Shown here piece after piece: positions 3,278 to 42,477 of a stretch of DNA of 64,000 bases (position 1 is the first letter of the stretch; each line of letters begins with the position of its first letter). A program made the translations under genes and the position numbers. Under the pieces are notes generated by a model, which did not search any database, was not told where the DNA came from, and was given only the letters and a program-made list of their open reading frames with translations. This stretch comes from Octopus vulgaris (Eukaryota), in NCBI GenBank assembly GCA_951406725.2, contig OX597836.1, positions 21,700,001-21,764,000 of the forward strand, in the 5' to 3' direction.

Positions 3278-3672
3278 GTAAAAAAATATACAAATTGGGA
3301 CAAGAACATGAAACATTTAGAAGACGACACAAAAAACACGGACGGGACATTCGAAGCCCTCAATCATCAGTCAAGAACCGGATCATCTTCACAATTTCGG
3401 CTGATTAATCTTGAAATTGCTCCGATCTGGGCAGCCCACAAGGGAAATCTATGCCAAGCGCATTAGATTCCTTGGAAGAAAGCCTCGAATGTATACAACA
3501 CAGGGACGGAAAACGATGTTACACGAATAAAAATACAAAAATACGTAAAAACAATAATGATAGCACGAATAAGAATACAAAATACGTAAAAACAATAATG
3601 GTAAGGATAACAACAAAACCAGGACGTCAGGACAAGCGTCTTTTCGACAGGACGAGTTAAGTTTTGAGCTGG
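3273..3672. mobile_element. Unclassified dispersed repeat between dinucleotide tracts (gggacaagaac...tttcggctgat family)
   Basis: Related copies at ~4355-4516 (opposite strand), ~6864-7030, ~10955-11000, ~50881-51280 and ~60877-61018. Confidence 0.65.
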
Positions 3673-12673: not shown

Positions 12674-13695
12674 TACGCGGGGGTACCGAAAAGAAACCGG
12701 AATTTTGTAATATTATTTTATTCACTTAATTTTACATGTTTACACTTTTATCGCCTTCAAAGTATTCTCCATGTGAAGCAGTGCATCTCCATCCGCGTTT
12801 TCCACTATTCGAAGTTGTACTGGAACTCTTGCGAAGTGATGCCTTTTAATGCCTATTTCTTTACTACCCACAAGGGGCTAAACACAGAGGGGACAAACAA
12901 GGACAGACAAACGGATTAAGTCGGTTACATTGACCCCAGTGCGTAACTGGTACTTAATTTATCGACCCCGAAAGGATGAAAGGCAAAGTCGACCTCGGCG
13001 GAATTTGAACTCAGAAAGTAACGCCAGACAAAATACCGCTAAGTATTTCGTCCGGCGTGCTAACGTTTCTGCCAGCTCACCGCCTTCGTTTCTGCCAGCT
13101 CACCGCCTTCGTTTCTGCCAGCTCACCGCCTTCGTTTCTGCCAGCTCACCGCCTTCGTTTCTGCCAGGTCGCCGCCTAGATGCCTTTTAATACCTCCATC
13201 TTTTTTTTATTTTTCTTCACCTCTTCCACATCTGCCAATTTCGTAGCACCAGCTTTCGTCACCAGATGATCTTCCAAAAAAGATCCGGATTAACTTCCAA
13301 CTGTTCTTTCAGTTCACGGCACGCATTCAGTCGTGACTGCTTCTGATCTTCTGTGAGCAAGGAGGCACAACTTTTGCAGCAACTCTCCTCATATGCAATT
13401 CGTTGCCCCAAATTCGTTGGCAGGAGCTTCAGGACACACCAGTCATATCAACAAGTTCGTCTGTTTTTCGGCGACGGTCTTCCAAGATCAGCTCATGGAT
13501 TTTCGTAATGTTTTCATTTGTTCGGGAGGTCGACTATTCCTAAAGTGTGGGAACTTGTGTCTTGCTCACAGCAGCGTCCTTGTAGGCTGTTTTAGGCATG
13601 ACAACTGTGTTTCGGCCGGCGTTTTCTCCAGAAGAAAACAGAATTTCACAGAAGCGCGCTGTTCCTTTGTTTCAGCCATCGCAAAAATCGATGAA
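12674..13695 (-). mobile_element. Degraded, internally deleted mariner (Tc1/mariner) transposon
   Basis: Minus-strand translation: MAETKEQRASVKFCFLLEKT (ATG at 13679), MRRVAAK..LLTEDQKQSR, GDESWCY and C-terminal HGEYFEGD; TA-cgcgggg end at 12674; stops and frameshifts; interrupted by a SINE. Confidence 0.85.
12854..13177 (-). mobile_element. SINE family A inserted in the mariner, 5' end amplified as 5 x 23 bp
   Basis: TSD gatgccttttaat(g/a)cct on both sides; unit cgtttctgccagctcaccgcctt starts at 13064, 13087, 13110, 13133, 13156. Confidence 0.92.
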
Positions 13696-13918: not shown

Positions 13919-14341
13919 TCTATGTTTGACTTTTGCTTTATGTCTGTACAAGTTGGCTCCAAGTCTCACCCAGAGACCTCAAGAGACAACAGGTTGGAAG
14001 TTCTGTGCCATATATTTGGGGGGGGGGCTGTTGTACTAGTGAGTGTCTAATACATAAAAATAAAAAAAAATAAATAAAAAATGAAAAATAAAAAAAAGTT
14101 TGTTTTAAACCTTGGGATTACATAGAGAGTATTTTGCGTAGGATATGAGCAGTTCCCATGAGCACTATCTTTTGAATTTCTGCCATTTTGGGGTTTCCTG
14201 GTATCTGAGTTAGGTAGCAATCAGTCCCTTTCGCTATCATTCCCAGGGCACCTATGACAACAGGTATTGTTTTAGTCTTCAGCTTCCACATTTTGCTGAT
14301 TTCTATTTCAAGATCTTTATATTTGCTCAGTTTTTGGTAAA
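13919..14341 (-). mobile_element. 5'-truncated R4/Dong-like non-LTR retrotransposon (RLE C-terminus plus 3' UTR)
   Basis: KLSKYKDLEIEISKMWKLKTKTIPVVIGALG...IQKIVLMGTAHILRKILSM*; (AAT)n on both sides when read on the sense strand. Confidence 0.85.
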
Positions 14342-14342
14342 G

Positions 14343-14398
<56 letters not shown>

Positions 14399-17250: not shown

Positions 17251-17816
17251 CCCCCACCCCCATCAGTGAGAAACAGTGAGCTATTGAAATAATTCGGTCT
17301 TTTGGGGGTTTTCAGATAAATTTAATCGTTTTAGTTCTACTTGTCACTCCACCGTCATAAGTTTGAAAAGCAGTAAAAATTTTTCAAATTTCGAAAACGA
17401 TGAACGAAATTTGTCCTGGAAGAATAGAGTTAGGCCGGTGTATAAGAGGCACCTTTTTGTAAATTCTTTTATTCTTAAATGTATTCTTAAATGTAACAAA
17501 AAATTGCTATGCATTTAATGCGACTGATGTATAAGTGAATGACGGAACGCTAACTTTTTTTCGCAAAAAGTATTTACTCCGGAAATACAGAAAAATAGAA
17601 AAATATAAAACACTTCGATAAAAGTATATTTTTTGTGTTAATTAAAATAATATTGGAAAGGATTAAAGTAAATGGAAAGAAAAACTGGAACAAATCTAAC
17701 AACCTAATATATAAAATTGTACTACATTATTCTACTGACATCATTCTAATTACATCATTCTACTGAGCATAAAAATAATAATAATAATAATAATTATAAT
17801 AATTATTATTATTATT

Positions 17817-18242
17817 ATTTGCTTGTCAGTTGTTTGACCTTAACCAGTTGAGCATGTCCCTTAGTGGCTGACGATATGTGCATCTCTGATCACGAGCAGA
17901 AGTAGTGGGGGAGCATCATAGCCATGTGTTGAGAGGGATTCTATGGGGTTTGAATAATTCACCTCTGGAAAATGGGTGGTTCTTTCAACATCCTTAAACA
18001 ACCCTTATTCAGGGACCTTTTGAGCGAGATGGGCTACTCGACCTGAAGAAAATTCTAACCGGGCCCCACTTGCAAGGTCATGCGCTGTTTATCTTGATAT
18101 GAGATCACCATGTCGCGCACATATGGTTGTGATGCATGTGCCTGGTGTACCCTTATCAGACGGGTAGTCATGATGGGTATATTGGGCTTCGTATATTTTA
18201 CCCCAGTGTCACTTTGATGGCATGAACTGCTCTCTCTCACTC
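17817..18242 (+). mobile_element. 5'-truncated copy of the ~560 bp (AAT)n-embedded element
   Basis: Highly similar to the 3' part of 35395-35953 and 41922-42477; ends ctctcactc-(AAT)n. Confidence 0.9.
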
Positions 18243-18275
<33 letters not shown>

Positions 18276-18281
18276 TAATAA

Positions 18282-18805
18282 TTTTTTTTCTTTATCGGCC
18301 AAAAGGGCCGCACATAAAACAAAGGACAATACAACCATGGGAATTTACGTGTAGTACGTGTGAATAGTAAAAAAATAATTACAATTGATAAAAATTCCAA
18401 ACAAGAAAATTCTCCAATCGGAGGGAAACTCCACTCAGGGGCAAACAAGAGACCCCACTCACCCTTGACACTCCGAACAGCAAAGGCACTTCGGGCGAGA
18501 ACCCTGTGCATCATTAGGCACATCATGCCCAGCACCCAGTGCAGCGACTGCTGACGGTAATCGTCGAAGCAGAAGGTGAGATCTACCCTAGTCCCCAAGC
18601 CACCGCGCGCTCCTTCCATTTCAGCAAAGTGCTGCTCAAATTCCGCACACATCTGCTTGGATTCGAGCAGCAAGAGTCCGTCCTGGCCCGCCAAAGATCG
18701 AATTGTGGCTTTGATTCCACGTTGCACATCCACCACACTGGCTCACCGAACGGATTTTATTTTTTCGTGTCTTAGAGCATGCACCCTGGCTCTGACGAAT
18801 TATTT
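18282..18805 (-). mobile_element. Deleted Tx1/L1-like LINE fragment with 3' end
   Basis: VRARVHALRHEK..QRGIKATIRSLAGQDG..MCAEFEQHF resembles the endonuclease-RT linker of L1/Tx1 ORF2; tail ggcccttttggccgataaagaaaaa then (ATT)n. Confidence 0.55.
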
Positions 18806-25857: not shown

Positions 25858-25872
25858 GTAAGATCTTTTTTT

Positions 25873-26852
25873 CTTTCGGATATATGCAAGTGTTTCCGTA
25901 TCGTAAATAATGACTGCAAATGTGTTTAATAATGAAATAAGATTACGATATAGAAAATTTTGCTTTCTTTTAAATGCCTTTAATACTTAATAATAGACGT
26001 CGTATTAAAAATCTTTCGGTTATATGCAAGTGTTTCCGTATCGTCAATAATGACTGCAAATGTGTTTAATAATGAAATAAGATTACGATATAGAAAATTT
26101 TGCTTTCTTTTAAATGCCTTTAATACTTAATAATAGACGTCGTATTAAAAATCTTTCGGTTATATGCAAGTGTTTCCGTATCGTCAATAATGACTGCAAA
26201 TGTGTTTAATAATGAAATAAGATTACGATATAGAAAATTTTGCTTTCTTTTAAATGCCTTTAATACTTAATAATAGACGTCGTATTAAAAATCTTTCGGT
26301 TATATGCAAGTGTTTCCGTATCGTCAATAATGACTGCAAATCTGTTTAACAATGAAATAAGATTACGATATAGAAAATTTTGCTTTCTTTTAAATGCCTT
26401 TAATACTTAATAATAGACGTCGTATTAAAAATCTTTCGGTTATATGCAAGTGTTTCCGTATCGTCAATAATGACTGCAAATGTGTTTAATAATGAAATAA
26501 GATTACGATATAGAAAATTTTGCTTTCTTTTAAATGCCTTTAATACTTAATAATAGACGTCGTATTAAAAATCTTTCGGTTATATGCAAGTGTTTCCGTA
26601 TCGTCAATAATGACTGCAAATGTGTTTAATAATGAAATAAGATTACGATATAGAAAATTTTGCTTTCTTTTAAATGCCTTTAATACTTAATAATAGACGT
26701 CGTATTAAAAATCTTTCGGTTATATGCAAGTGTTTCCGTATCGTCAATAATGACTGCAAATGTGTTTAATAATGAAATAAGATTACGATATAGATAACTT
26801 TGTTTTCTCTTAAATGCCTTTAATACCTTTGTAATAGACGTCGTATTAAAAA
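25873..26852. repeat. Intronic tandem array, 7 x 140 bp, near-identical units
   Basis: tatatgcaag recurs at 25881, 26021, 26161, 26301, 26441, 26581, 26721. Confidence 0.97.
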
Positions 26853-27128
26853 TTTTGATTAAAATGATAACTTTTTTCGATTCAATATTTGGTTTAGAAG
26901 TATATAAACCAGTATAGTAAATATATAAATATAGTAAATATATAATAGTATAGTAAATATATAAGCCAGTATAGTAAATAAAGGAGATAACATGAGGTGG
27001 CTGAGATGACCGAGCATCGAACTTAATATATTTCAATTGCTGTACAACAACTACCAGGAAAACGTTAAGGTTAAACTCAACGACAGAAGACACAGTAGCA
27101 AAGCAGCAATAATAACAGCAACAACAGT

Positions 27129-32199: not shown

Positions 32200-32710
32200 C
32201 GTCCTCTAGCATGTAATTAGTACTTTACTTTATCAACTCCAAATGGATGAAAGTTGACTTCGGCGAAATTTGAACCTAAAACGGAAAGAGTTGAACAGTA
32301 AAAAGTTACATTCAGTCAATCCACTACCTTTATGATAATAATGATTATAATGTTTTCAATTTTGAGTACAAGGCCAGCGGTTGTAAGTGAGCAGGGAATT
32401 GAGTACATCAACCCCACTACTTCACTGGCACTTATTTTCGCGAGCCCCAAAGGATAAAAGTCGTAAGTCGACCTAGGCAGCATTTGAACTCAGAACGTAA
32501 GGTGCTACGAAAAATAGTGGTTTAAAAATGTTGGCACAAGACCAGTACTTTCGGGAGAGGAAGAAGTCAATTACATCAACCCCAATACTGAGCTAGTATC
32601 TATTTTATCCATCCTGAAAAGGATAAAAGGCAAAGTCGATCCCAGCGAAATTTCAGCTCAGAACGTACGGACGAAATGCTCAGCAGTATTTCGTCCAGCG
32701 TACTTTCGTC
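32200..32710 (-). mobile_element. Three tandem degraded SINE family A-related copies
   Basis: Repeated ggat(g/a)aaa...gtcgacc...tttgaactcagaacg cores at ~32245, ~32452, ~32621. Confidence 0.65.
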
Positions 32711-32800
32711 CCCCACACTTTATGCCTGTCTTTGTATTTTTCCCCTCATCCTTCGACCTTGTGGCCAATGAAAGAATTTATCCTCCTCCTCATCATCATC

Positions 32801-32886
<86 letters not shown>

Positions 32887-32911
32887 AGCAGTGAATTGCC
32901 AACTCGCTGCT

Positions 32912-32975
<64 letters not shown>

Positions 32976-33088
32976 TGATGATGAGGAGGAGGAGAGAGGA
33001 GGAGAGGAGGATGAGGATAAATTCTTTCATTGGCCACAAGGTCGAAGGATGAGGGGGAAAAGACAAAGACAGGCATAAAGTGTGGGGG
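32711..33088. repeat. ~380 bp hairpin: inverted copy of a LINE 3' end plus microsatellite, loop about 10-15 nt
   Basis: 32711-32783 is the reverse complement of 33015-33088; (ATT)n faces (AAT)n; centre aaagcag-tgaattgccaactcg-ctgcttt. Confidence 0.93.
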
Positions 33089-33774
33089 GTTTACACAATG
33101 GAATGATAAAAAAAAAACGGGAAAGAAAGTAAGTGTACACGGTATACACTGAAAAAGAAGGGACGTATGCATAGCATACAAAGGTTAAAAAAGGGTGGCG
33201 GAGCGGGTGATAGAGATGTGGCCCTCCTGATACATGAAGGCCTCTATGGGTAATCGAGGAAACCCATTGTCCGGGATTTATCTGAAACCCCATGTGCAAT
33301 GTTCTCTCCAATTCGTTCGTGCCGTCTCACAGGTCAACACTTAGAGATGTACCATCCACTCTTGCCATTTTCGCAGCTTTCATTCACCTTTCAATAAACT
33401 CACTGGAAGACAGCACTTCCCTCTCCACTCTCACTTTCCTTCATTGATTTCCATAAAGAAGTCAATGAGAGCTCTACCAAAGAGAAACGTATCTGTCCTC
33501 ATGCCTTACAGCCTTGTCCATCAAACAACCCATTTGGCCACAGCCACCAGGCGAAGGAAAATTGCCTTGCCTGTCCGATTGAAGGAGGGCGGCGGTGCAA
33601 TCGTCATTACAGACTCGCCCGACAGACGGATCCGTCGCACACGCGACAGCAGCTGTTCGACATAACCCCACAAGTCAGCAATGCCCGCACACTGAACAAG
33701 GGTGTGCAGAACGGGTTCGTCACTCTGCGCGCACCTCGGCCCGTCTGACAGCACATTTGTGTCTGTAGAGTTTA
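33018..33774 (-). mobile_element. 5'-truncated Tx1/L1-like LINE (ORF2 C-terminal zinc knuckle plus 3' UTR), degraded
   Basis: PRCAQSDEPVLHTLVQC (degenerate CCHC), then RKVRVEREVLSS...MARVDGTSLSVDL* (stop at 33327); 3' tail gaccttgtggccaatgaaagaattt. Confidence 0.75.
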
Positions 33775-33791
33775 TGATAATAATAATAATG

Positions 33792-33864
<73 letters not shown>

Positions 33865-33866
<2 letters not shown>

Positions 33867-34620
33867 GTCGGCATTATAAAATCAAAACCGCTGACAAATG
33901 GTATAAACACCATCCTGAAGCTGTGACTGAGGGAGAAATTGTGTCGATTCTATGGGACTTCCCCGTACAGACCGACAAAACTACAAAAGCTTATAAACCG
34001 GATATTATTATAAAAGATCAGACAAAAAATATGTGTTTATTAATTGACATGAGTATTCCTTGCGATCACAATATAGCGGCGAAAGAATTTGACAAGATTA
34101 GTAAATATAAAGACTTGCTAATAGAAATTGAAAAAATGTGGCATCTCAAGGCGACTACAGTACCAGTGATTGTAGGATCTCTAGGAATGATAAAAAAAGG
34201 TACTGAAACCTATTTGAAAATGATTCCAGGCTTACCATCCATACAGGAAGTGCAAAAAATCGTGTTAACTGGAACGGCTCATGTACTTAGAAGAGCATTA
34301 TCGCTGTGAAAACAACATCCATCCATGAATTTATTAATTTATTAATTTTTAAATACATATTTTATCTGTGAATTTGCGTGTGTAATCTGGGAATGCATAC
34401 AATGAGCTTCTCTACCCTAGGTGTATGGAAAACACTCGGCGAAAAACGGAAGATAATCGCTGTGAAAACAACATCCATCCATGAATTTATTAATTTATTA
34501 ATTCTTGAATACATATTTTATCTGTGAATTTGGGCGTGTAATCTGGGAATGCATACAATGAGCTTCTCTACCCTAGGTGTATGGAAAACACTCGGCGAGA
34601 AACGGAAGAAAATTTGAAAA
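33865..34620 (+). mobile_element. 5'-truncated R4/Dong-like retrotransposon, family 1, with duplicated 3' UTR
   Basis: WYKHHPE...ILWDFPVQTD...KPDIII...LLIDMSIP...KISKYKDL (PD-(D/E)xK RLE); ORF open to 34309; (AAT)n on both sides. Confidence 0.9.
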
Positions 34621-34648
34621 TAATAATAATAACAATAATAACAATGAT

Positions 34649-34721
<73 letters not shown>

Positions 34722-34731
34722 GTAATAATAA

Positions 34732-35320
34732 TATATTCACAGACATGACAGAGTTGGAACCTACATACATTGGAAGCTATGCCAACATTATGGAATAACA
34801 ACAGAAAAAAGATGGTATAGGCACACACCAGAAAAGGTCACAGAAAACGAGAAAGTAACCATACTCTGGGATATGCCGATACACACAGATAGAGAAATTA
34901 AGGCCAACAGACCAGATATAGTTGTCAGAGATCATGAAGAAAAAAAATGCTTTCTAATTGATGTATCAATACCGGCAGATGACAACGTGTCTCTAAAAGA
35001 AATAGAGAAACTCTCAAAATACAAAGACCTGGAAATAGAGGTAACTAGAATGTGGAATCTGAAAACAGAAACAATTCCTATCATAGTAGGTGCATTAGGC
35101 ACGATAAAAAAATATTCAGACAAATACATAACAAAAACACCAGGACTTACAAACACATATAACATACAGAAAATTGCACTACTAGGCACTGCACACATCC
35201 TACGCAGAACACTTTCCATACAATAACCATCAGAGCATCACAACAAATCACAGCACATACCCAAGGCACACAGAGCTGCGCTCGGTAGTGAAGTGAAAGC
35301 ACGCTATGAAAATAAAACTA

Positions 35321-35323
<3 letters not shown>
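34732..35323 (+). mobile_element. 5'-truncated R4/Dong-like retrotransposon, family 2
   Basis: YIHRHDRVGTYIHWKLCQHYG...ILWDMPIHTD...RPDIVV...LIDVSIP...KLSKYKDL; RHD and PD..D..K motifs, no stops to 35226; (AAT)n on both sides. Confidence 0.92.
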
Positions 35324-35394
<71 letters not shown>

Positions 35395-35396
<2 letters not shown>

Positions 35397-35953
35397 GCCC
35401 TGATGCAGTGCCAGGCAGCGGCTCTCGTGGCTTCTGATCTTAACTGATTGGAAGTGTTATCATGTACATTGTTTTGTCTTGGTATAAAAGATGGGCTACA
35501 GTAAATATCCTGCTCAATACCACAGATTTGCTTGTCAGTTGTTTGACCTTAACCAGTTGACCATGTCCCTTAGTGGCTGGCGATATGTGCATCTCTGATC
35601 ACGCGCAGAAGTAGTTGGGGAGCACCATAGCCATGTGTTAAGAAGCATTCTTTGGGGTTTGAATAATTCACCTCTGGAAACATGGGTGTTTCGTTCAACA
35701 TCCTTAAACAACCCTTATTCAGAGACCTTTTGAGCGGCATGGGTTACTCAACCAGAAGAAAATTCTAATTGGGCCCCACCTGCGAGGTTATGTGCTGTTT
35801 ATCTTGATATGAGATCACCATGTCGCGCGCATATGGTTGTGATGCATGTGCCCAGTGTACCCTTATCAGACGGGTAGTCATGATGGGTATATTGGGCTTC
35901 GTATATTTGTACACCCCACTGTCACTTTGATGGCATACACTGCTCTCTCACTC
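35395..35953 (+). mobile_element. ~560 bp non-coding (AAT)n-embedded element, full length
   Basis: Starts atgccctgatgcag, ends ctctcactc; same ends as 41922-42477; strand assigned by analogy with Dong polarity. Confidence 0.88.
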
Positions 35954-36244
35954 AATAATAATAATAATAATAATAATGCTTTCAAATTTTCGCATAAGGC
36001 CAGCAATTGTAAGGGGGGCAGAAGTCGATTACATCACTCCCCCCTATACTTGGCTAGTACTTATTTTATCGACCCTGAAAGGATGAAAGTCAAAGTTGAC
36101 CTTGGCAGCATTTGAACTTAAAACGTTAGAATGTAATGAGTTGCAAGAACGTTAATGACCATTAATTTGAGGGGAGGGGCAAGACAATTGCACACATCCA
36201 GAACTTGACAGGTACTTTACTTTTTTAAAAAATATATGTGCCCT

Positions 36245-36485
36245 ATGTAAAGCCTAGCCTGGCTCATGGGCCCGGTTTCCCGGTTTCTATGATGTATGCG
36301 TTCCCCAGCTGGACGGGATGCCAGTCCATCACAGCATTACTCATTTTTGCCAGCTGAGTGGACTGGAGTAACGTGAAATGAAGTGTTTTGCTCAAGAACA
36401 CAACGCACTGCCCGGTCCAGGAATCGAAAGCACAATCTTACGATCATGAGGCTGACACCCTAACCACTAAGCCACGCGCCTCCAC
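36245..36485 (-). mobile_element. tRNA-derived CORE-like SINE with the tail type seen at 25236
   Basis: Minus head tggaggcgcgtggcttagtggttagggtg; body gttcttgagcaaaacactt; tail gatggactggcatcccgtccag...gaaaccgggaaaccggg. Confidence 0.8.
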
Positions 36486-37528
36486 TGGTGCTTTATTTTA
36501 GGAACTTTAAAAAGATGAAAGTCAGCCTCAGCGGAATTTGAACTCAGGCATTTTGTCCGGCACAGTAACGGTTCTTCCAGCTGGCCATGTTTCAAAAACA
36601 AACTTCCAATTTTGGCACTAGGCCAGCAATTTTGTGCTCAACCCGAGTGCTCAACTGACACTTATTTTATCGGCCCTGAAAGGATCAAAACGAAGTTGAT
36701 CTCAGCAGAATTTGAACTAAGAGTGTCAAGAGTTTGAAGAAATAATAACGTGGGAGAGAAGGAACAAATGAGGGAACCTTTAGGTGCCCTTTCGAATTTC
36801 AAGAAATAACAGCCAATTATACGTCAGATCCAAGGCAGTTTTAGAGCACACTCTCTAAATATTATGAAAGACAATATTAAAGAAGATACTATGGCGGCAA
36901 GCTTTCAGAACCGTTTGCACACCGGGCAAAATGCTTAGCGACATTTCGTCTGTCTTTACGTGCCACCGAGGTCAACTTTGCTTTTCATCCTTTCAGGGTC
37001 GATAAAATAAGTACCAATTGAACACTGAGGTCGTTGCAATCGAATTACGAAATTGCTGGCCTCTCCCGAAATTGCTGGCCTTGTGCCAAAATTTGAAATC
37101 AATATTTAAAAAGACACTTGCTTAAGGTGCTCTACAACGGGGTCGAACTGGTAAACACAGGATTACAAAATGAAATGGTTAACCCTGACTGCCATTGCTT
37201 TCTCTCAAATACTAAATTCAATTCCATTCAACTCCAGACATTCCTGCAGTTTCTGCAGTTCACATTAGATTTGTTCCACTTGCTATAATAAGATTTGTCG
37301 GAATATTTCGAGGAAAATTCTTGGATTCTCGAAAATCACCAACCAAATCTATTTCGTTTTGTTTTTTGTTTTGTTTTATTTGTTTTTAATTTTGTCTTGT
37401 TTTACCTCAGATAATGATAATTGACATAACATCCTTAAAATACTGTCTCCTCCACCTCCTCCTCGTTATTATTATTATTATTATTATTATTATTGTTATT
37501 ATTATTATTGTTATTTTTATTATTATTA

Positions 37529-41872: not shown

Positions 41873-41921
<49 letters not shown>

Positions 41922-41923
<2 letters not shown>

Positions 41924-42477
41924 GCCCTGATGCAGTACCAGGCAGTGGCTCTCATGGCTTCTGATCTTAACTGATTGGAAGTGTTATCATGTACATTGTT
42001 TTGTCTTTGTATAAAAGATGGGCTACAGCAAATATTCTGCTCAATACCACATATTTGCTTGTCAGTTGTTTGACCTTAACCAGTTGAGCATGTCCCTTAG
42101 TGGCTGACGATATGTGCATCTCTGATCACGAGCAGAAGTAGTGGGGGAGCACCATAGCCATGTGTTGAGAGGGATTCTTTGGGGTTTGAATAATTCACCT
42201 CTGGAAACATGGGTGGTTCTTTCAACATCCTTAAACAACCCTTATTCAGGGACCTTTTGAGCGGGATGGGCTACTCAACCTGAAGAAAATTCTAACTGGG
42301 CCCCACCTGCAAGGTCATGTGCTGTTTATCTTGATATGAGATCACCATGTCGCGCACATATGGTTGTGATGCATGTGCCTGGTGTACCCTTATCAGACGG
42401 GTAGTCATGATGGGTATATTGGGCTTCGTATATTTTACCCCAGTGTCGCTTTAATGGCATGAACTGCTCTCTCACTC
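41922..42477 (+). mobile_element. ~560 bp non-coding (AAT)n-embedded element, full length
   Basis: Highly similar to 35395-35953; (AAT)n on both sides. Confidence 0.9.

Follow-up and report, generated by a model that had tools for sequence, protein, structure and literature searches.

A stack of retroelement fragments separated by (AAT)n

The window considered here is a 64-kb stretch of DNA (OX597836.1, positions 21,700,001-21,764,000) from a 2.8-Gb genome comprising 227 contigs; about 9.2 kb of it is pure short repeat, of which the AAT share is 1.3 kb. Four retroelement fragments of differing age, with (AAT)n between them, form a real stack in this window. The components of the stack, and the related sites found elsewhere in the window, are listed below (coordinates are those of the window; identities are to the best other copies in the genome; RLE, restriction-like endonuclease).

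32526-32710, minus strand: body of an abundant SINE, its head cut off by a fold-back and continuing at 32900-32913 (blastn to many window copies)
32711-32900, plus strand: local fold-back, inverted, repeating the Tx1-like 3' end together with its (ATT)n tail and the start of the SINE head
32914-33017: ATT-type tail belonging to the Tx1-like element, here (AAT)20 that degenerates to GAT/GAG units
33018-33770, minus strand: 5'-truncated 3' end of a Tx1/L1-like LINE, 79-83% identity, the oldest element
33776-33865: (AAT)n spacer
33866-34618, plus strand: Dong-like family 1, 5'-truncated RLE C-terminus and 3' UTR, 95-97% identity
34619-34729: (AAT)n spacer containing occasional AAC/GAT units
34730-35323, plus strand: Dong-like family 2, 5'-truncated RLE C-terminus and 3' UTR, 98-99% identity, the youngest element
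35324-35392: (AAT)23 spacer
35393-35953, plus strand: 561-bp non-coding element with a fixed 3' end and Dong polarity, 94-95% identity
35954-35977: (AAT)8, doubling as the ATT tail of the right-hand SINE
35978-36140, minus strand: 3' part of the abundant SINE (blastn)
13920-14343, minus strand: 3' end of Dong-like family 3, with (AAT)n on both sides
17774-18805: small cluster made of an AAT/ATT run, a 5'-truncated 561-bp element (plus strand, 17817-18242), (AAT)11 and a Tx1-like piece (minus strand, 18283-18805)
41920-42477, plus strand: another copy (the third) of the 561-bp element, full-length and flanked by (AAT)n at either end

The initial annotation had proposed the series Tx1-like (minus), Dong-like 1 (plus), Dong-like 2 (plus) and a 560-bp element with (AAT)n between them, and all of its parts were found in place, families 1 and 2 sharing the plus polarity that had been claimed for the RLE elements. 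Likewise, the Dong-like end reported at 13919-14341 turned out to be the 3' end of family 3. The smaller cluster placed at 17775-18805 is present too, with a 561-bp element and a Tx1-like piece in it and no Dong LINE; similarly, the three or more RLE families claimed for the stack are matched by three in the window, only two of which lie inside the stack, the third being that at 13920-14343. These families are divergent, as the RLE peptides share 53% identity between families 1 and 2 (146 aa) and 63% between families 3 and 2 (72 aa). In the window copy of family 1 the ORF remnant ends at 34309, and the 3' end has undergone a private local tandem duplication (156-nt, 96% alike). The abundant SINE that closes the stack at both ends, each time on the minus strand, is one that I take to be 'OK-type'.

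The beginning of the interval first delimited, at 32711, does not belong to the series of inserts: positions 32711-32900 repeat 32902-33088 in inverted orientation, by local duplication and not as a separate insertion. Its arms (32710-32794 and 33004-33088) comprise 85 nt of non-repeat sequence that are 95% alike, and the SINE resumes at 32710. A contig from a different sample (X4 record 17) reads across the left junction, its shorter side covering 65 letters, and an assembly artefact, considered as the source of the fold-back, is therefore unlikely; two further samples cross the same junction with 29 and 26 letters, below the 31-letter rule. A second fold-back beside an AAT array, consisting of two opposed family-2 tails, was seen elsewhere in the genome (L188:1309-1523), the one described here extending over 32710-33088 and being centred on the SINE head. 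Two other tandem arrangements occur in the window, namely the 23-nt head of the abundant SINE repeated five times (13064-13177), a 5' duplication of the type described below for Dong-like copies in an unrelated element, and a 140-bp unit in seven tandem copies, 98% alike (25872-26853).

(AAT)n as a target of Dong-like LINEs and of the 561-bp element

First-look candidates in the genome, 40 of which were scored for each family, number at least 4128 for family 1, 607 for family 2, 1461 for family 3, 8830 for the 561-bp element and 4556 for the Tx1-like element. Junctions were tabulated for the 30 best copies per family, the window copy included, the 5' junction being located against a natural long copy and scored for (AAT)3 at <=30 nt upstream. 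Such a repeat precedes 21/30 copies of family 1, 22/28 of family 2 and 16/19 of family 3, adding up to 59/77 Dong-like copies, as well as 26/30 copies of the 561-bp element, against a background of 0.6%; the 5' junctions of two family-2 and 11 family-3 copies lay beyond the flank retrieved or beyond the reference and were left unscored. On the 3' side, (AAT)3 was found in 25/30 copies of family 1 and in 30/30 each of families 2 and 3 and of the 561-bp element (Dong-like, 85/90). Five of the six family-2 copies that miss the 5' repeat have a short self-duplication of their first bases or other filler between themselves and an AAT run, and five of the 30 family-1 copies have no AAT run within 45 nt upstream. 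On the sense strand the upstream repeat is AAT in every case, with or without a further element on that side, and the truncation points lie anywhere between base 1 and about base 3400 of the reference; being spread over the whole element, they indicate that the upstream repeat belongs to the target and not to the element. For several divergent RLE families and for the 561-bp element, (AAT)n serves as target and not just as tail. The proposal of an (AAT)n target common to at least three divergent RLE families is thereby borne out for families 1, 2 and 3, all in one polarity, the tabulation of flanks and orientation placing (AAT)n on both sides instead of at the 3' end only.

A weaker result, against this reading, came from an evenly spaced sample of 120 stretches of 10 kb (1.2 Mb): the 5' (AAT)3 was present in just 21/53 scoreable Dong-like fragments, 30 of them being without a triplet run, and in 16/26 copies of the 561-bp element; the sample figure is lowered by old or internal fragments and by partial references drawn from the same sample, while the best-match sets favour young copies. 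At five loci (L081, L087, L058, L165, L241), (AAG)n stands in place of (AAT)n directly upstream, and is either a second tolerated target or the outcome of a later replacement of the repeat unit.

Long copies of family 2 measure about 4 kb, and one of them (L127) has a 1070-aa open frame in which RVT_1 (E 1.2e-31) is followed by a CCHC knuckle and a PD-(D/E)xK nuclease (PD..D). Against the PDB, this frame matches R2 structures best (E 7e-36, CCHC and PD..D aligned), five R2-type sequences being its only relatives there at E<=0.01. A Pfam search with the three RLE peptides of the window gave nothing above cut-off, and neither a C2H2/CCHC motif nor a Pfam match was found in the N-terminal frames of the near-full-length copies L125 and L255. 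The N-terminal model is a four-helix domain (pLDDT 89) that appears to resemble Myb/SANT folds weakly: its best fold matches belong for the most part to DNA binders of the Myb/SANT type (Sap1 Z 6.0, Zeste Z 5.8, ISWI SANT Z 5.0, TRF1 Z 4.8) with winged-helix proteins mixed in, such Z possibly meaning just a shared helical arrangement, and Foldseek returned nothing for the domain model at E<=0.001. No named Dong or R4 protein is found among the best 120 of 913 homologues listed, and membership of the R4/Dong clade therefore rests on domain layout and target. The homologues listed include a Pediculus RT at 46%, and family 1 stands at 43% to Pediculus RT P0120; a Pediculus Dong-like element is included in the available part of PMC7998251.

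At the 5' junctions, the first 15-75 bases are often repeated in tandem, about 8-11 times at most in near-full-length family-2 copies, with a unit length that differs from copy to copy (family-2 5' ends L121, L125, L255 and L210; also L124, L034, L033, L025, L086 and L088), which suggests that the RT re-primes repeatedly on reaching the template end. A strict home-made descriptor, the sensitivity of which is uncalibrated, found no convincing fold of an HDV-like ribozyme at the 5' end of one copy each of family 1, family 2 and the 561-bp element. At the other end, (AAT)n runs on for about 1.5 kb beyond one young family-2 copy (L031-L060 set).

As to the 561-bp element, 67 matches end within its last 20 nt and their starts are spread along its length, in keeping with a fixed 3' end and 5' truncation. 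By blastn it has no match to, and no common 3' end with, 11 Dong-like references, most of which are partial, and other families may exist. No Dong ORF homology was detected by HMM in 30 copies, and a search of 32300-37200 against Rfam gave nine weak matches, all far below gathering scores, and no family for the element. Its derivation from a decayed piece of RT was considered on account of a lone tblastn match (E 5e-4 at best, to 1/142 proteins), and was dismissed as the match was lost with an HMM of 61 relatives, doing no better than reversed controls. The element combines Dong-like flanks and polarity with the absence, in these comparisons, of the homology to a partner LINE at the 3' end or at both ends that is expected of a SINE or an internally deleted Dong derivative. 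The shared target, polarity and truncation pattern point to a borrowed Dong enzyme. The family is very abundant in four other runs (X2, X4, X6, X17) bearing four different organism codes and, being abundant in all four, either predates their split or has spread among them.

The Tx1-like family carries an ATT/ATC-type tail in 29/30 genomic copies. On its upstream side (ATT)3 is present in 5/27 (19%) and a looser run in five more (10/27 loose, 37%), with none in 17/27, the backgrounds being 0.6% (strict) and 1.6% (loose); the criterion for a target preference in the available text of PMC4494074 is >20% of flanks. I regard this family as one that chiefly makes tails, its target preference being partial at most. 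The earlier claim that every insert is bounded by the same triplet is right for the stack; among genomic copies it describes most of the Dong-like and 561-bp ones and a minority of the Tx1-like ones. The RT piece of a longer Tx1-like copy (L138) matches LINE-1 ORF2p best (E 1.8e-5, 136 aa) and R2 slightly worse (E 1.4e-4, 66 aa), both matches being weak, and no APE domain was recovered for the family.

Other tail makers include a CR1-like family, which has an (ATT)3 tail in 11/11 copies, and SINEs, the tails of which end in (ATT)3 in 7/31 and 10/52 matches with two probes and in 0/95 with a third; the names CR1-like and SINE are assumed here from motifs. New arrays are likely supplied by the Tx1-like, CR1-like and SINE tails. 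A further repeat with an internal (AAT/AAC)n run of its own (L230:7680-7900, L224, L215) hosts Dong-like copies and makes up 9/116 of the 3' neighbours in the best-match sets; besides that run, it presumably has a tRNA-like head and a hammerhead-like body.

Abundance, age order and renewal

The 1.2-Mb sample contains 172 (AAT)n arrays, 73 of which touch a Dong-like or 561-bp element, and 5904 of their 12058 bases adjoin one. The 80 copies in it (54 Dong-like, with about eight or more distinct 3' ends, and 26 of the 561-bp element) fall into 53 chains, 44 copies being in chains of >=2: there are 36 single copies, 11 pairs, three triples, two chains of four and one of five, the latter owing to local duplication. 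Adjacent pairs number 27 (23 without one local duplication), against about two expected under uniform placement, and without local duplication 20 are on the same strand vs three on opposite strands (p 5e-4). Extrapolated from five chains of >=3 in 1.2 Mb, about 12,000 such chains would be present genome-wide (95% range 3,800-27,000). Moreover, a Dong-like or 561-bp neighbour of the same polarity lies across the 3' array in 39/116 best-match copies, and one of opposite polarity in a single copy; 10/29 Tx1-like copies have such a neighbour, always on the other strand. The stack described here is ordinary for this genome, in which such stacks are common.

The youngest element of the stack, family 2, is internal, and the sample shows other families on the upstream as well as the downstream side of family 2; arrays therefore fill at any spacer, without an order of end growth. 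The suggestion of an ordered array reminiscent of telomeric ones had to be abandoned, as the elements show no age order; the contig is 50.6 Mb long, and the locus is found at 21.7 Mb.

In 23 young family-2 copies, the median lengths of the two repeat flanks are 57 and 75 nt, vs 48 nt in 99 free arrays. Since both halves are as long as free arrays, both remain targets and the site is re-used. The sum of the two flanks has a median of 126 nt in the same copies, vs a length-weighted 93 nt for free arrays, which is suggestive, not decisive, of a net gain of repeat per insertion. When empty arrays are counted, chain sizes follow a geometric law better than a Poisson law (log-likelihood -120.4 vs -128.7), and for occupied sites alone the two fits are alike (-40.4 vs -39.4); uneven target quality thus explains chain sizes as well as a rich-get-richer process does. 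The self-renewing landing pad of the initial annotation accordingly stands in so far as (AAT)n is left on both sides and the site is re-used, and an accelerating renewal is not supported beyond what uneven target quality would give.

A wider scenario, which I put forward only tentatively and hold to be somewhat doubtful, is that of a community sharing one target, whereby the ATT tails of SINE, Tx1-like and CR1-like elements would be colonised from the opposite strand by at least eight Dong lineages, together with a non-coding passenger, net gain of repeat driving a rich-get-richer growth towards about 12,000 stacks. If so, the stacks would be a datable record of insertions and would take up about half of the AAT microsatellite.

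Origin of the stack and comparison with known systems

The explanation that I consider very probable is that the fragments arrived by separate insertions, in which Dong-type (R4-like) enzymes cut inside (AAT)n, copied their RNA in and left usable repeat on both sides. Among contigs of four other runs compared with 35393-37420, where repeat copies dominated the matches, no empty allele was seen. Nick-and-prime reverse transcription is the established chemistry of RLE elements; at this site, the restriction-like nuclease would nick the ATT strand and reverse transcription would be primed there. The array may have been founded by an ATT tail, either that of the SINE beside it or that of the Tx1-like LINE, the candidate being (AAT)8 at 35954-35977, and the elements would have come in the order Tx1-like, 561-bp element, family 1 and lastly family 2, as separate events, the 561-bp element presumably riding on a Dong enzyme. 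A later local repair event or template switch might account for the fold-back at the left end.

Should the repeat be a 3' tail only, with elements piling up passively in AT-rich tolerant DNA, each 5' flank would be the tail of a neighbour. This fits the tails of the Tx1-like family and the 17/27 copies of it with no ATT-type run upstream, all the CR1-like copies, and old Dong-like fragments without a 5' repeat, yet as a general account it is very unlikely: Dong-like and 561-bp copies have the 5' repeat in about three quarters or more of cases vs a 0.6% background, with or without a neighbour upstream, and insertion exactly behind the tail of a neighbour itself amounts to targeting. For the young Dong-like families, the tail-only reading is largely refuted.

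Equally hard to credit is the formation of stacks in single events, either through an RT that finishes one RNA and jumps to the (AAU)n tail of a second, or from read-through transcripts of several elements. That the RT re-primes is shown by the frequent 5' tandem duplications of an element's own first bases, and neighbours of the same family do occur (L123, L131), but the neighbours in this stack are of unequal age (identity to the best copies about 81, 96, 99 and 94%), most chains of the sample mix families, and the 156-nt duplication of family 1 is present at this locus only, among 35 loci with a match. Growth by recombination or slippage between (AAT)n arrays is more improbable still; it may be recognised where a 48-nt element tail with its (AAT)n is repeated three times (L225) and where duplicates are adjacent (L163/L164), and makes a minor contribution (1/17 multi-element chains), but recombination repeats one piece and does not bring in different families, truncation points and ages. 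Each of these processes accounts for a minority of cases, and separate insertion into (AAT)n is the explanation retained here.

Part of this picture is already in print. TAA repeats are given as the target of Dong in silkworm, mosquito and snail in the available text of PMC3812793, and (TAA)n as that of Dong in most insects, molluscs and cnidarians in the portion available of PMC7998251; for octopus, the accessible part of PMC13282606 reports five recently active Dong-R4 families with 1129 insertions, and further accounts of octopus Dong are PMC9115989 and PMC8967140, as far as their available text goes. In these same portions of the three octopus papers, the (AAT)n target, the polarity and the stacking are not described. 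A search by title or start of abstract listed no report of multi-family Dong stacks, and does not establish their absence from print. With target and clade already known, the locus may be seen as a textbook consequence of repeat targeting. Its practical bearing is that AAT microsatellites are here often retroelement junctions, which matters for marker design and affects the calling of new Dong insertions from short reads, and that stacks offer a means of ordering the activity of families.

The closest likeness is to Dong of Bombyx mori, DongAg, the snail DongBg, the ostracod Dong and the R4 clade, which, according to the available parts of PMC7998251 and PMC3812793, have one ORF encoding RT, a CCHC motif and a restriction-like nuclease, lack zinc fingers at the N-terminus, carry a predicted Myb/SANT-like domain there and target (TAA)n. 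The difference is that about eight or more distinct 3' ends use one target in one genome here, and stack; moreover, Bombyx Dong carries a 5' HDV-like ribozyme (available text of PMC3774820), none being detected here with the strict descriptor. Kibi, Koshi and the crocodilian Tx1 elements exemplify the preference of the Tx1 clade for microsatellites, as described in the accessible portion of PMC4494074; in the Tx1-like family here the unit is ATT/ATC and any preference is partial (5 strict, 10 loose, of 27). The same portion describes SINEU-3, tandem copies of which arise by sequential insertion into a regenerated target.

A further likeness is to the telomere-repeat arrays of SART/TRAS and HeT-A/TART, in which several families share one short repeat, with a polarity fixed per family. 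The arrays of the present genome differ from them in occurring dispersed, by the thousand, in having no known host function and in showing no age order.
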